Below, piece after piece: positions 1,214 to 23,779 of a stretch of 32,189 nucleotides of DNA (position 1 is the stretch's first letter; every line of letters starts with the position of its first letter). Below the pieces are notes generated by a model. It had not been told where the DNA came from, searched no databases, and saw nothing but the letters and a program-made list of their open reading frames with translations. Source of the stretch: Octopus sinensis (Eukaryota); the NCBI RefSeq assembly GCF_006345805.1, contig NW_021832158.1, positions 1 to 32,189 of the forward strand, given 5' to 3'. The position numbers and the translations under genes are program-made.

Positions 1214-1537
1214 TATAACAATAATGACGGGTTTAGCAACAAGTTCCTTCACCACATACCGAAAATTTAGAAATAGCAGCCACACGACCACTATTTCTTT
1301 TTCCTACAAAATATGTCTCCACAGATAACAATATTTGTAACTCACATAGGTAAAAAGAAGAAAAATAATGAAATCAAACAGTCTTCGATTGATTATGGAC
1401 GCGTTTCTGGATAAGAATTATAAAAATTAATTTCCTTTGTCAACATAATATTTCGAGAATTATAAATTTGGCTGCTATTTCTAAATTTTCGGTATGTGGT
1501 GACGCAACGTGTTGCTAAATCCTTAATTATTGTTATA
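1214..1537 (-). mobile_element. Foldback (MITE-like) element with 68-bp terminal inverted repeats and central hammerhead
   Basis: 1214-1281 (TATAACAATAAT...GAAAATTTAGAAATAGCAGCC) is the reverse complement of 1470-1537 with a few mismatches. Both ends are TA. Confidence 0.85.
1392..1449 (-). ncRNA. Type I hammerhead ribozyme, two core substitutions
   Basis: Minus strand: ATTATG-TTGACAA-A-GGA...TCC-A-GAAAC-GC-GTC-CATAAT. Perfect 6-bp stem I, ACGCGT helix III, GTC triplet. Core is TTGACAA versus CTGACGA. Confidence 0.7.
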
Positions 1538-4202: not shown

Positions 4203-4653
4203 ATTCCTTTCTACAATATGCACAAGGCCTGGAATTTGTTTTGATGGGTGGAGCGGATTATAAGTACCAATTAAGCACTGGGGGAAGGGGCGATTACATC
4301 GCCATCAGTGCTTAACTGGTACTTATTTTATCGACACCGAAAGGATGAAAAGTAAAATCGATCTCGGTGGAATTTGAACATGGAACGTAAAGCCAGAAGA
4401 AATCCCGCAAAGCATTTTGTCTGGTGCGGTAACGATTCTGCTAGCTCGGAACCTGGTAACGATTTCAAATGTCGACACAGTTTTTAAGGGAGGAATAAGT
4501 CGATTACGTTGAGCCCAGTATTCAACTGGTAGTTATTTTATCGACCCCGAAAAGATGAAAGGCAAAGTCAGCCTCGGTGGAATTTGAACTCAAAACGTAA
4601 AAGACTGACGAAATGCTGCTAAGCATTTACCCGGCATGCCAGCTCGTCGCCTC
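4203..4653 (-). mobile_element. Two tandem diverged SINE family A copies
   Basis: Two units (about 4203-4448 and 4460-4653) carry ACTGGTACTTATTTTATCGAC-CCGAAAGGATGAAA...GGAATTTGAAC, as in the 6.1-7.6 kb cluster. Confidence 0.85.
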
Positions 4654-5462: not shown

Positions 5463-6086
5463 CAGTGTGTGTGTGTTGCTGATCAGTCTGAGAAAAATGT
5501 TTACAGCCGATATTTTGTAGTGAGGTTTGCGCTAGAATATTAACCCTTAAATCAATCAGACCCCTATGGCTACCACGAGCGGCGTCTTCTAGGTTCCCAC
5601 TTGCTCACTGCAGTATGTCCGAATCAGATGAGAAGAGTAGCTCTCTTCCGACTGTTTAGTTTGCAGTCCCATAAATTATCAGAGACAGCATGTCTCCCGG
5701 ATGTCGTTCGGGTGTTACTGCAGTAAAAACAGTCGTCACTTTTGGCAAGGATACACAAAGAGCCGAACTTCGATCGGAAAGCGACTTCGAAAATAGCATC
5801 ACATGTCTGTTAGACAAAAAAGAAAATGCAGAATAGGAAAAAAAAAAAAAAAGATAAAAAAGATGAAATATTCTAAAACAGATTTTCTTTCATCCCTTTC
5901 GGCCCAATGAAAGGTAATCATTAAAAATATTTGAAACGAACGAATGTTTCTTTATAGTTAGGCCAAATAAAGGAAATGTATTTTTTATGACGTTAATTAA
6001 CAATTTAAAGAAAAAGTATTTACGAAGCTACAGTTAAAGTACAATTTCAAACGCAGCTTACAACAAAGGCCTCGTTTTAGTTAATA

Positions 6087-7575
6087 TTGATTTCAAATTT
6101 TGGCACAAGGCCAGCAGTTTTGAGGCGCAGTTGGTCGGTTACATCGACTCCAGTGCTCAACTGGTACTTATTTCGGCGGCGTTTGAACACAGAACGTAAA
6201 GAAGTGAAATACCTATTTCTTTATTACCCACAAGGGGCTAAATATAGAGGGGACAAACAAGGACAGACATACGTATTAAGTCGATTACATCGACCCTAGT
6301 GCGTAACTGGTACTTAATTTATCGACCCCGAAAGGATGAAAGGCAAAGTTGACCTCGGCGGAATTTGAACTCACAACGTAACGGCAGACGAAATACCGCA
6401 AAGCATTTCGCCCAGCGTGCTAACGTTTCTGCCAGCTCGCCGCCTTCGTTTTAGTAAATAAATTTTAGTAAAGAAGTGAAATACCGCTAGGCTGTTTGCC
6501 AAGCTTGCTAACGATTCTGGCAGCTTGCTGCCTTCATTTTAGTAAATATTCTTTTCTACTCCAGGCACAAGGCCCGAAATGTTGGGGGAGGAAGCCAGTT
6601 GACTATATCGACCCCAGTATGCAACTGGTATTTTATTTGTCGAGCCCGAATGGATGAAAGGCAAAGTTGACCTCGGCGGAATATGAACTCAGAACGTAGC
6701 GGCAGACGAAATATCGCTAAGCATTCGCCCGGTGTGCTAACGTTTCTTATTTTTTATTGCCCACAAGGGGCTACACATAGAGGGGACAAACAAGGACAGA
6801 CAAACGGATTAAGTCGATTACATCGACCCCAGTGCGTAAGTGGTACTTATTTAATCGACCTCGAAAGGATGAAAGACAAAGTCGACCTCGGCGGAATTTG
6901 AACTCAGAACATAAAGACAGACGAAATACCTATTTCTTTACTACCCACAAGGAGCTAAACACAGACAGGACAAACAAGGACAGACAAACGGATTAAGTTG
7001 ATTATATCGACCCCAGTGCGTAACTGGTACTTAATTTATCGAGCCCGAAAGAATGAAAGGCAAAGTCGACCTCGGCGGAATTTGAACTCAGAACGTAACG
7101 GCAGACGAAATACCGCTAAGCATTTCGCCCGGCATCCTAACGGTTCTGCCAGCTCGCCGCCTTCAATTTTAGTAAATATTCTTTTCTACTCAAGGCACAA
7201 GGCCCGAAATTTTGGGATAGGGAGCCAGTCGATTAGATCGACCCAGTACGCAACTGGTACTTTATTTATCGACCCGGAATGGATGAAAGGCAAAGTCGAC
7301 CTCGGCGGAATTTGAACTCAGAACGTAGCGACAGGCGAAATACCTGTTTCTTTATTACTCACAAGGAGCTACACACAGAGGGGACAAACAAGGACAGGCA
7401 AACGGATTAAGTCGATTACATCGACTCCAGAGCTTAACTGGTACTTAATTTATCGACCCCGAAAGGATGAAAAGCAAAGCCGACCTCGGCGGAATTTGAA
7501 CTCACAACGTAGCGGCAGATGAAATACCGCAAAGCATTTCGTCCGGCGTGCTAACATTTCTGCCAGCTCGCTGCT
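6087..7575 (-). mobile_element. Cluster of about 7 tandem/nested SINE family A units
   Basis: On + the units begin at about 6087, 6214, 6547, 6748, 6931, 7177 and 7345. Minus-strand head is AGGCGGCGAGCTGGCAGAA...GAGTTCAAATTCC (B box). Two classes of 3' tail. Confidence 0.92.
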
Positions 7576-7591
7576 TTTGTTTTAATAAATA

Positions 7592-7988: not shown

Positions 7989-8185
7989 AAGGCGGTGAGC
8001 CGGCAGAATCGTTAGCAAGCTTGGCAAAATGCTCAGCTGTATTTCGCTTGTCTTTACGTTCTGTGTTCAAACGCCATCGAGATCAGCTTTGTCTTTCATG
8101 AAATAAGTACCAGCTGGGGTTGATGTAATCGACTTACCCTTACCCCCATATTGCTGGCCTTGTGCCAAAATTTGGGACCAATATT
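7989..8185 (+). mobile_element. SINE family A copy (internally deleted)
   Basis: AAGGCGGTGAGCCGGCAGAATCGTTAGC...GTGTTCAAAC...GGCCTTGTGCCAAAATTTG. Confidence 0.85.
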
Positions 8186-8759
8186 AGCCCTTTTGTTTGA
8201 AGAACATAGATCAGTGGTAAAGATAGTGGTGCGTCGTACTAAAAATCTTTCCGTATTTATTATTGCCTATGTTCTGAGTTTGAATCAAGTGTAGGAAACC
8301 GTTTTGACTTCTGATAGGAAAGACACAGTCAACCGCGACAGAATTTGTACTGTCGGGAAAATGATGATATGTTGAGATTCATGGTTTTTAGTTTTTTTTG
8401 CGTTGTTTTTTGCTTTGTTTTTTTTTTTTTTTAGTTGTTTGTTTGTTTTTTTCCTTGTAAAAATTTATCGAGTCTGACCGAAAGTTAGAACTGAACTCTA
8501 ACTTGAATACCATTAAATATCAAATGGATCATCAACTGTCTCATCAGCCTTACTACTCATTAAACTAACCATCGTTGGACTTCAGACTGAACAGCGACTG
8601 TTTTACATTCGCCAAACTATCATCGAGTGAATGAAAGGCAAGAAGAGCTGCTGATATCAATTCTTTGGTCAGTGATTTTGTTTAGACTGTGATAAAGGCG
8701 CAATAGGTAAGCAACGAGAAGATGGTTTAGCAATGCTTTGTTGTGCAACATAAATCTAG

Positions 8760-12346: not shown

Positions 12347-12436
<90 letters not shown>

Positions 12437-12523
12437 ACTAATATAGGATAAAAAATTTTTCGGGAAAAAAATGTTATCAATGGCCAGCATATCAAAAAAT
12501 ATCTTTAAAGGTTAAATTTATAA

Positions 12524-12882
12524 ATAATTTACAAGATAAGGGCAAAAGAAAAATTCTAATCCCAAATATGCCGAAAAAAAGACAAAACTTTTCAATAACC
12601 ATTATAATTTATGCGTCCCGAAACAAAGGACTTGGTGTTTGCTTTTTCCATGGGTATGAGTAAGTATTTCACTTATATCTCGCGTATTTGCCGCTGAAGA
12701 GGAGAAAATTTCTTATTAATTAACCCCGAAATTTGGACCAATACGGTAATAACGAATTTTTTAGAATTTTCTATCGGTTTGTTTCGAGACGCATAAATTA
12801 TAATGGTTATTGAAAAGTTTTGTCTTTTTTTTCGGCATATTTGGCATTAGAATTTTTCTTTTGCCCTTATCTTGTAAATTAT
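12524..12882 (+). mobile_element. Foldback (MITE-like) element with about 104-bp terminal inverted repeats and central hammerhead
   Basis: 12524-12627 is the reverse complement of 12778-12882 with about 3 differences. The right end abuts (TA)n. Confidence 0.9.
12683..12754 (+). ncRNA. Type I hammerhead ribozyme, intact core
   Basis: Stem I TTGCCG/CGGTAA, extended by CGT/ACG. CTGAAGA at 12694-12700. Stem II GG/CC. GAAA at 12728-12731. Helix III ATT(TGGACC)AAT. Triplet ATA, with cleavage after 12743. Confidence 0.8.
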
Positions 12883-12894
12883 ATATATATATAT

Positions 12895-13092
12895 AGGGAG
12901 AGTTTACGAAAAAACAAAAGACGAAGATAGGTGGTGTAAAAAACAAACATGTATTAGTATAACGCTCAGGAATAGAAAGAGTCTTTTACGTTTCGAGCCT
13001 ACGCTCTTCTACAGAAAGGGACACAGAAAAAACAATGAGAGAAACAAGGAGAGAAAAAATGTGTCTAGTGGTTAACGATCTATCATGGCGTC
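12895..13092 (-). mobile_element. Short non-coding element between microsatellites carrying a minimal hammerhead
   Basis: About 200 bp of non-microsatellite sequence bounded by (TA)n and (TG)n. Hammerhead at 12983-13018. Confidence 0.65.
12983..13018 (-). ncRNA. Minimal type I hammerhead (Penelope-type), A6 changed to U
   Basis: Minus strand: CTTT-CTGTAGA-A-GAGC-GTAG-GCTC-GAAAC-GTA-AAAG. Confidence 0.65.
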
Positions 13093-13168
13093 TGTGTGTG
13101 TGTATATATATATATATATATAATATATATATATATATATTATATATATATATATACACACACACATG

Positions 13169-19849: not shown

Positions 19850-21116
19850 TGGACACGAAATGAACTGTCCAAAATAGATAGGAAAACAAGAAAAATACTG
19901 ACAGGATCAAGGATGCATCACCCAAAATCTGACATAGAAAGACTATATATACAACGTATAGAAGGTGGTAGAGGCCTTATACAGCTGGAAAACTACTATA
20001 AAATAACCACCATAGGACTGCAAAATACCTACTTCAGAAGGAAGGAAAACTGATCCAGATAGCAGCAAAACACGAGCAAAACAAAAAACTGTTCTCAGTA
20101 TTTAAGGAAGCTGACAAATACAAACAAGAAACCATACCACCTAATAAACACAAAGAAGAAGATGATGAAGAAACAACAAAAGCTATAAACAAATGAAATC
20201 CAAACTAAAATAGAACAGCAACGAGCCATGATAAAACAATGGCAAGAAAAGCCCCTTCATGGTAATACTGCACTAAACTAAACGCAAAAGAAATAGACAA
20301 AGAAAAATCCCAGCAATGGTTGAGAAGCTCAGGACTCAAAGCAGAAACAGAGGGATTTTTAATTGCAGCACAAGACCAAAGCCTCCCCACCAGAAATTAC
20401 CAAAAACATGTAATGAAAAGAAATATTACAAGTAACTGCAGAATATGTGGAGATGGACAAGAAGCAATAAATCATATTATCTCTAGCTGCCCAGTCCTGG
20501 CTAAGAAGGAATATATTCACAGACATGACAGAGTTGGAACCTACATACATTGGAAGCTATGCCAACATTATGGAATAACAACAGAAAAAAGATGGTATAG
20601 GCACACACCAGAAAAGGTCACAGAAAACGAGAAAGCAACCATACTCTGGGATATGCCGATACACACAGATAGAGAAATTAAGGCCAACAGACCAGATATA
20701 GTTGTCAGAGATCATGAAGAAAAAAAATGCTTTCTAATTGATGTATCAATACCGGCAGATGACAACGTGTCTCTAAAAGAAATGGAGAAACTCTCAAAAT
20801 ACAAAGACCTGGAAATAGAGGTAACCAGAATGTGAAATCTAAAAACAGAAACAATTCCTATCATAGTAGGTGCATTAGGCATGATAAAAAAATATTCAGA
20901 CAAATACATAACAAAAACACCAGGACTTACAAACACATATAACATACAGAAAATTGCACTACTAGGCACTGTACACATCCTACACAGAACACTTTCCATA
21001 CAATAACCATCAGAGCATCACAACAAATCACAACACATACCCAAGGCACACAGAGCTGCGCTCGGTAGTGAGGTGAAAGCACGCTATAAAAAATTTTAAA
21101 AAATGAAACTACTGAA
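19846..21116 (+). mobile_element. 5'-truncated R4/Dong-clade LINE (thumb, CCHC knuckle, RLE endonuclease, 3' UTR)
   Basis: HHPKSDIERLY..GGRGL; ETEGFLIAAQDQ; CRIC-x7-HIISSC; RHD; RPDIVV...IDVS...EKLSKY. A few stops and frameshifts. Flanked on both sides by (TAA)n. Confidence 0.95.
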
Positions 21117-21153: not shown

Positions 21154-21183
<30 letters not shown>

Positions 21184-21184
<1 letters not shown>

Positions 21185-21322
21185 TTCTTTCTACTATAGG
21201 CACAAGGCCAGCAATTGGGGGAGGGTCTAGTCGATTACATCAATCCTATAACTTGAACTTATTTTATCGACTCCAAAAGCATAAAAGGCGAAGTAGACCT
21301 CGGAGGAATTTGAACTCAGAAT
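21184..21322 (-). mobile_element. 5'-truncated SINE family A
   Basis: ATTCTTTCTACTATAGGCACAAGGCC...GACCTCGGAGGAATTTGAACTCAGAA. Confidence 0.85.
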
Positions 21323-22990: not shown

Positions 22991-23142
22991 AAGCAGCGAG
23001 ATGGCAGAATCGTTATCACATCGTACATAGCATTTGTTCTGGCTCTTTACGTCCTAAGTTCAAATTCCGAGATAAACTTCCGCCGAGATAAACTTTACTT
23101 TTCATCCCTTCAGGATCGATGAAATAAAGTGCCAGTCAAGTG
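22991..23142 (+). mobile_element. Diverged SINE family A copy
   Basis: GCGAGATGGCAGAATCGTTA...AGTTCAAATTCCG...TTTCATCCCTTCAGGATCGATGAAATAAAG. Confidence 0.75.
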
Positions 23143-23242
23143 TACGCATTAAAAACGGTGTTCAGCCATACGTTGTTGGAAATTTGCATATGTACATAGA
23201 CACACACACACGCATACATACATACACACCTACATATATACA

Positions 23243-23779
23243 TCGAATAAACTTAGAAAATCCCTCTGTTGTGGAATACATTCATAAACACCAACTCAAG
23301 GAATACTGGAGGAATATTCCCATCAAAACTTCTGTCAAATGTAAGCATAACAGACCGGATATTGTTGTTTGGGACAGAGGAACAAAAGTATGTACAATCA
23401 TAGAGGTCAGCTGCCCTGCAGATATAAATATCTCTTTGAAAATCAAAGAAAAAGATGGGATTTCTATGGACAACTGCTTTGAAACCTCCAGCTTCTATAA
23501 CCAGACTATGAATTCATATTCATACCAGTAATAATTGAAGCACTGGTTTTGTTAGTAAATGCTTGAAGGAGGATTCTGGATAAACTGTGATTTTCAGAAA
23601 GAGAAATCGACCAGCTAATTCATACACTACAAGTGCAAATTGTGAGTAGAACAGTAAAAATATGCAATACTTTTCTCAAGTTCCAAATGTGAATTTGTCT
23701 GTGTTAACTACATCCCAAAGATGGAGCCTTGTATCTTTGTTGGAAACCACTCCCTCCTCAGTGGAAGATTTATAATAAT
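23243..23779 (+). mobile_element. R4/Dong-clade LINE 3' fragment (RLE endonuclease plus 3' UTR), third subfamily
   Basis: YWRNIPIKTSVKCKHNRPDIVVWDRGTKVCTIIEVSCPAD...KIKEK...FIPVII. Ends TATAATAAT. Confidence 0.88.

Follow-up and report, generated by a model that had tools for sequence, protein, structure and literature searches.

Positions 1214 to 1666 of the window, by which we mean the whole stretch of DNA analysed here (32,189 nucleotides, a complete, microsatellite-rich 32-kb contig of a 2.7-Gb genome), very probably consist of two 5'-truncated copies of an ORF-less, hammerhead-bearing unit of ~569 nt, which lie head to head in a TA microsatellite; a single insertion event, carried out by a borrowed enzyme of Penelope-like type (RT + GIY-YIG), is the likely source of both. 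In the repeat family to which these copies belong we observed the unit, also in tandem, with 5' ends that vary and 3' ends fixed at two sites ~120 nt apart, of which an inverted pair has one each; the U3:A8 core of the hammerhead is inherited. Judged from its sequence, the element is a non-autonomous, retrozyme-like unit inserted in the manner of Penelope, which carries a core variant that has been described before. The locus in the window is an old, ordinary insertion.

The element borders a (TA)n/(TG)n microsatellite on the left (1121-1213), its likely insertion target, and a (TA)n/(TATG)n microsatellite on the right (1667-1860); both ends thus lie in microsatellite sequence and no target duplication is visible beyond the TA runs. 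The minus-strand copy (1214-1470; unit positions 549-805, where position 1 is the start of stem I) ends at the short 3' site and is 3.7% divergent from the majority sequence of the U3-A8 subfamily to which it belongs. The plus-strand copy (1467-1666; unit 165-367) ends at the long 3' site, and the two copies share a 4-nt microhomology (1467-1470) at their 5'-to-5' junction. A minimal type I hammerhead is found on the minus strand at 1392-1449, with stem I formed by 1449-1444 and 1397-1392, the core TTGACAA (U3:A8) at 1443-1437, an interrupted stem II, GAAA at 1407-1404 and a palindromic 2-bp stem III. Read from 1449 to 1392 the order is ATTATG, TTGACAA, stem II, GAAACGCGTC (1407-1398) and CATAAT, and the predicted cleavage point falls between 1398 and 1397. 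One stem II pair of the window copy is broken by a base change at 1429. The minus-strand hammerhead, its perfect 6-bp stem I and GAAACGCGTC had all been recognized in the first-pass annotation, and the motif is not a chance occurrence: the corresponding pattern gives 46 matches in the genome and its reversed control none.

The same annotation regarded the element as a foldback structure, in which 68-bp terminal inverted repeats (TIRs) enclose the hammerhead. The inverted match of 1214-1281 with 1470-1537 is indeed present (62 of 68 positions), but it is not terminal. The plus copy runs on to 1666, and the segment 1538-1666, which had been overlooked, is a one-sided "tail" of ~120 nt that separates the short from the long 3' end site. 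In a genome search with 1214-1537 most other long matches pass the junction of the window into more common family sequence; most of them also extend past the outer end, and 1538-1666 is that continuation. The repeats do not behave as termini: of 42 long matches, counting the window, only three cover both arms (best 40 of 1762 candidates scored), and minus copies elsewhere usually continue upstream into family sequence where the window has its right arm (1470-1537).

The unit length of 569 nt was read from a tandem copy. The unit has no long ORF (the longest open frame in the doubled unit has 64 codons), and no match to a PLE ORF was found in the window. For a sample that is independent of the hammerhead motif, an exact 30-mer of the arm was used, which has 151 matches in the genome; the first 100 of these, from 94 loci, were analysed. 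At a divergence of 5-9%, the 151 exact matches suggest that the family probably numbers around a thousand copies. The 153 fragments in these loci have widely spread 5' ends, and no pile-up occurs at the cleavage site, with two of the 153 starting within unit positions 51-56. Their 3' ends are concentrated in two places, 67 in the bin 241-250 and 50 in the bins 351-370. A microsatellite follows 85 of these 117 ends, against 629 of 4700 random places. Copies longer than one unit occur seven times in the 94 loci, and tandems with two hammerheads were seen at L050, L061, L137/L187 and L175; no long tandem arrays were seen, only dimers and mostly dispersed truncated copies. The family thus displays the traits of PLE insertions: variable 5' truncation, partial tandems, a 5'-joined inverted copy, a one-ended tail and AT-rich or microsatellite targets. 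No RNA data set was listed as containing the family; contigs from four runs matched the tandem copy only in scattered pieces and are uninformative on transcript, circle and cleavage. A word resembling a splice donor, GTAAGT, abuts an acceptor-like word, TTTTCCTAG, ~45 nt upstream of stem I (for instance in L017 near 1480-1495); the pLTRs of PLEs can contain introns. None of the papers listed describes the family, which may already be catalogued in Repbase or Dfam.

Head-to-head inverted pairs number 49 in the 94 loci. In 33 of them one arm ends at the long and the other at the short site, four are short+short, none is long+long and 12 have another end; among the 37 pairs that can be classified, 33 are therefore long+short, with the second end ~120 nt beyond the short site (P about 4e-7 against independent ends). 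The arms overlap by 4-257 nt, and in four pairs not at all; 28 of the 33 long+short pairs overlap by at least 20 nt. A complete hammerhead is lacking in 36 of the 49 pairs, whereas 12 have one and a single pair has two. In 21 of the 33 long+short pairs the short-ended arm extends further 5' than the long one. Non-majority bases are common to both arms at 3.2% of sites within pairs and at 0.9% between pairs (32 pairs; none of 5000 permutations as high). Since the arms carry common variants and the short arm often reaches further 5', we infer two primings on RNA of the same source, one for each target strand and start site. The endonuclease would nick both strands of the target, reverse transcription would be primed twice, once per internal start site, on an RNA template that is uncleaved, tandem or circular, and the two cDNAs would be joined 5' to 5' through microhomology. 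The "TIR" would then merely be the region copied in both cDNAs, and a hammerhead would come to lie between the arms only if one of the cDNAs had been extended far enough.

An inversion could also arise if one cDNA or antisense template folded back and primed itself, and the endonuclease then cut one arm back to the short site. Such self-priming was put forward for rotifer PLEs on the basis of junction palindromes (PMC3846280), and it agrees with the variants that the arms of a pair have in common. It fits at most 12 of the 33 long+short pairs, namely those in which the short arm is nested in the long arm or starts within 5 nt of its start, whereas 21 of the 33, and the window, have sequence unique to each arm, so that neither arm is a simple copy of its partner. 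We therefore consider this route unlikely. Far less credible still, to the point that we give it hardly any weight, is the earlier reading of a non-autonomous DNA foldback or MITE element with 68-bp TIRs, the hammerhead of which decayed after insertion. The 62/68 inverted match, a similar full-length match at two other loci and a second hairpin of similar layout in the window are in line with it. It does not account for ends that vary between copies and a right arm that extends for a further 129 nt, for the 36 pairs without a hammerhead, or for a core state that is inherited; both ends lie in microsatellite, and beyond the TA runs no target duplication can be made out. The description as a "TIR-hammerhead-TIR foldback element" fails in the same way, as arm length and hammerhead content differ between loci: a MITE or Foldback DNA transposon is refuted by the variable junctions and the inherited core, and constant inverted-repeat termini are not found.

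No autonomous partner was found among 29 GIY-YIG loci (20, plus nine longer stretches), a small part of the 5029 candidates, and mobilisation by a PLE is consequently deduced from the insertion pattern. At the DNA level the similarity of the unit to these loci was limited to one 46-nt stretch at E 0.003, which is not meaningful. The unit contains no ORF for RT and GIY-YIG, and none of the loci of the family or its sister family has an ORF that is continuous with the unit. PLE ORFs do occur beside family copies (L068, L042/L183, L169/L182, L272 and weaker ones), but they were rejected, as none runs on from the unit as an internal region common to the copies. At L182:3295-5215 (L169) a more-than-unit copy runs directly into a 5'-truncated PLE ORF of like orientation, past which the unit does not resume; this single case is a possible template switch. 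An unrelated autonomous RT + GIY-YIG family (L113:2232-4574 with its 3' region, L112, L116) has several open frames of 781 codons; one such frame passes the Pfam cut-off for GIY-YIG and narrowly misses it for RVT_1. It carries a hammerhead-like motif with a TTGATAA core (1218 pattern matches; U3:A8 in 99 of the 100 matches listed), of which stem I is weak or unclear.

The core of the window copy, TTGACAA, had been explained as two transitions, one of them at a CpG, acquired by decay after insertion. Positions 3 and 8 of the hammerhead, C and G in the canonical core, are Watson-Crick paired, and the two changes together restore such a pair (U3:A8), a state that is fixed in the subfamily of the window. 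TTGACAA is an inherited swap of the core pair and not damage. Among the 46 matches of the first motif pattern, which favours stem I of the window's subfamily, a count by eye gave TTGACAA in 19, and U3/A8 in 33, U3/G8 in nine, C3/G8 in two and C3/A8 in two. A second pattern yielded 32 canonical cores, 26 of which could be placed in the family by their stem II. CTGACGA, on which a CpG origin depends, occurs in none of these 32, and in the 116 collected copies CTGACGA was found once and TTGACGA never. The motif-independent sample, with 41 hammerheads in 37 loci, contains TTGANAA (10), canonical (9), TTGANG (7), CCGA (7) and other (8) cores. The CCGA copies form a U4C subfamily, with CC at core positions 3-4, which is spread over L061, L063, L082, L170, L178, L191, L216 and L227 and includes a tandem dimer; U4 is normally invariant in hammerheads. 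A9G was seen in three of the 116 collected copies.

A consensus of genomic copies was expected to restore CTGAYGA at 1437-1443. The subfamily of the window keeps TTGACAA, the outcome that had been named beforehand as refuting the earlier claim, whereas sister subfamilies have CTGANGA, and the column majority of the motif-independent sample, TTGATGA, is neither of the two proposed alternatives. The family is a mixture of subfamilies, and neither consensus statement therefore holds for the whole of it. Derivation of the motif from a canonical hammerhead, also part of the earlier claim, was borne out by the CTGANGA cores of the sister subfamilies and of an outgroup family. The latter, a sister family (L260-L284) that is ~72% identical, has the same unit order and tail, a canonical core and a much longer stem II. 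All ten cores visible in this outgroup are canonical, which makes C:G the ancestral state. In a FastTree phylogeny of 102 copies, from which the core columns were left out, copies group by core state. The majority sequences differ by 4.7% between the C3/G8 group (which here includes the CCGA copies) and U.G, by 3.2% between U.G and U:A, and by 7.1% between C3/G8 and U:A. A short tree rooted with the outgroup leaves the order of C:G, U.G and U:A unsettled, with five U.G copies nested among U:A copies. On balance we favour a swap in the source lineage that replaced C3:G8 by U3:A8 without loss of the pair, probably by way of U3.G8.

For the fold, 98 of 109 distinct copies were compared, the 11 with deletions or mis-cut ends being left out. 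Paired cells amount to 89.6% over the 98 rows; none of 500 shuffles was as high, and slid controls reached 26-39%. The features of a minimal type I hammerhead (stems I-III, GAAA, the UH site and the 3:8 pair) are present and supported by covariation. The 3:8 pair is C:G in 40 rows, U:A in 38, U.G in 14 and unpaired in six. Double changes between G-C and A-U occur at two pairs of stem I and one of stem II in 12-24 rows, numbers that count related copies and not events. The majorities of the canonical and U:A subfamilies differ in 11 columns, made up of three matched pairs, two changes from G.U to A-U and three unpaired columns; all eight differences at paired positions preserve pairing (P about 0.007 for the three matched pairs). 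The outgroup family has the pair G10.1-C11.1 next to G12; in the present family this position is open in 85 of the 98 rows. The minimum-energy monomer fold of the window motif is weak (-2.7 kcal/mol) and without stem III, which is expected of a dimer-type motif and makes this fold uninformative. An Rfam scan returned no hammerhead among the matches listed (150 of 186), mostly microsatellite miRNA artefacts.

Ribozyme activity is a separate matter. Against it speaks a full double-mutant scan of one type III hammerhead, in which the G:C swap alone rescued the pair (PMC9901934). We put slightly below even the chance that, in the source element, the ribozyme with U3:A8 could still cut, as a dimer or with the help of a protein. 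Hammerhead activity in the family would seem doubtful, since positions 10.1-11.1 are open family-wide, the U4C subfamily has spread and a stem II pair of the window copy is broken. It may also be that the insertion was equally of Penelope type and the ribozyme a passenger, the core of which changed by drift in the source lineage, selection being relaxed and mutation AT-biased, so that U3:A8 is partly luck. The U4C copies (7 of the 41 hammerheads in the motif-independent sample), the occurrence of A9G in 3 of 116 copies and the open 10.1-11.1 pair would agree with a passenger, as would the direction of the three matched pair changes from the canonical to the U:A majority, which all run from G/C to A/T. 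In vitro, insertion by an anole PLE was unaffected by hammerhead mutants (PMC11167929). Against drift speak the subfamily majorities, in which no difference breaks a pair and three double changes are matched, and the U3:A8 core that also dominates the unrelated, abundant PLE family of this genome. We regard the passenger reading as a real possibility, though the less probable one.

The first-pass annotation had argued from the recurrence of the layout in a different sequence family that a mechanism lies behind it, and in this it was right. The second hairpin of the window (12433-12893) consists of inverted copies with an 80-nt tail on one arm and a canonical CTGAAGA hammerhead, and has no significant similarity to the 569-nt unit, as had been stated for the two hairpins. 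Inverted pairs were found at 16 of the 19 top-match loci of this family, mostly long+short and three long+long, a sample biased by the query. As an unrelated family with a like layout, it shows the recurrence to be real and already explained: the mechanism behind the layout is the known Penelope-like inverted insertion and not a new architecture. Several other repeats were noticed in the window. A fragment of a third repeat (12891-13095), found too in four of the 29 GIY-YIG loci, adjoins the second hairpin and has, by eye, a minimal-hammerhead-like word on the minus strand. Positions 567-704 and 1041-1128, adjoining microsatellite, hold a direct repeat (88 nt, 97%) together with an inverted piece of 28 nt, perhaps another partial tandem retroelement. 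A SINE-like repeat has many nested copies (4290-4640, 6075-7590, 7990-8190 and 21180-21320), and the open frames at 20266-20835 and 23076-23531 look similar to the C-terminal zinc-knuckle/restriction-like endonuclease region of non-LTR retrotransposons.

For annotation these results remove a false lead, as the "TIR-hammerhead-TIR" hairpins of this genome are products of Penelope-type inversion, and TTGAYAA should not be taken for a dead core. The value that remains lies at the level of the family rather than of the window locus, in the core series and the end asymmetry, if confirmed. The natural series C:G, U.G and U:A can be used to test the tolerance of the hammerhead core, and the long/short asymmetry constrains models of integration by PLE enzymes and of the mobilisation of retrozyme-like RNAs. 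We tentatively suggest, as a combined reading that could well prove too strong, that the Penelope-type enzyme starts at a different RNA site for each of the two target strands and that the family records, like a fossil series, how the active site of a ribozyme crossed a fitness valley, transposition-competent subfamilies having carried C3:G8, U3.G8 and U3:A8 cores one after the other with their stems paired throughout. The basis of the start-site asymmetry is the 33 long+short among 37 pairs and the absence of long+long; the only in vitro study did not show it.

The following comparisons refer to the available parts of the papers cited. Insertions of PLEs have been described as 5'-truncated partial tandems with an inverted truncated copy at the 5' end and a one-ended tail (PMC8557442, PMC3846280). 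The anole PLE protein cuts and extends both strands of AT-rich DNA, and reverse transcription begins at two internal RNA sites that bound the tail (PMC11167929). The present family resembles such EN+ PLE pLTR insertions (PMC8557442, PMC3846280, PMC11167929) in its head-to-head 5'-truncated copies and partial tandems, its one-ended tail, its TA-rich targets, a hammerhead close to the 3' end and two fixed end sites. It differs from the published PLEs in that the unit has no ORF, the tail is ~120 nt instead of 30-40 nt, and no autonomous relative was found. With the metazoan non-LTR retrozymes and non-autonomous PLEs (PMC7229834, bioRxiv 10.64898/2026.07.22.740005, and the MRC1 type in PMC8557442) it shares a non-coding tandem unit with one type I hammerhead each, more-than-unit copies and a proposed mobilisation by PLEs. 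In contrast to the retrozymes the unit is 569 nt instead of ~300, only dimers were seen and the hammerhead is minimal, with a variant core. Natural U3-A8 hammerheads have been described, with in vitro activity cited (PMC3088659), and a search that set out from a PLE of S. mansoni recovered ~1300 of them (PMC4209133). The present hammerhead is most readily compared with the minimal ones of metazoan PLEs, including the U3-A8 variant of Cercyon from Schistosoma mansoni (PMC4209133, PMC3088659), in being of type I with a long stem II and a short palindromic stem III, which implies action as a dimer, and in the extra base after A9, the U3-A8 covariation and the pairs of motifs on opposite strands. 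Unlike these, it has an extra base also before G12, by which the conserved G10.1-C11.1 junction is displaced, and its C:G, U.G and U:A states coexist as subfamilies within a single family.
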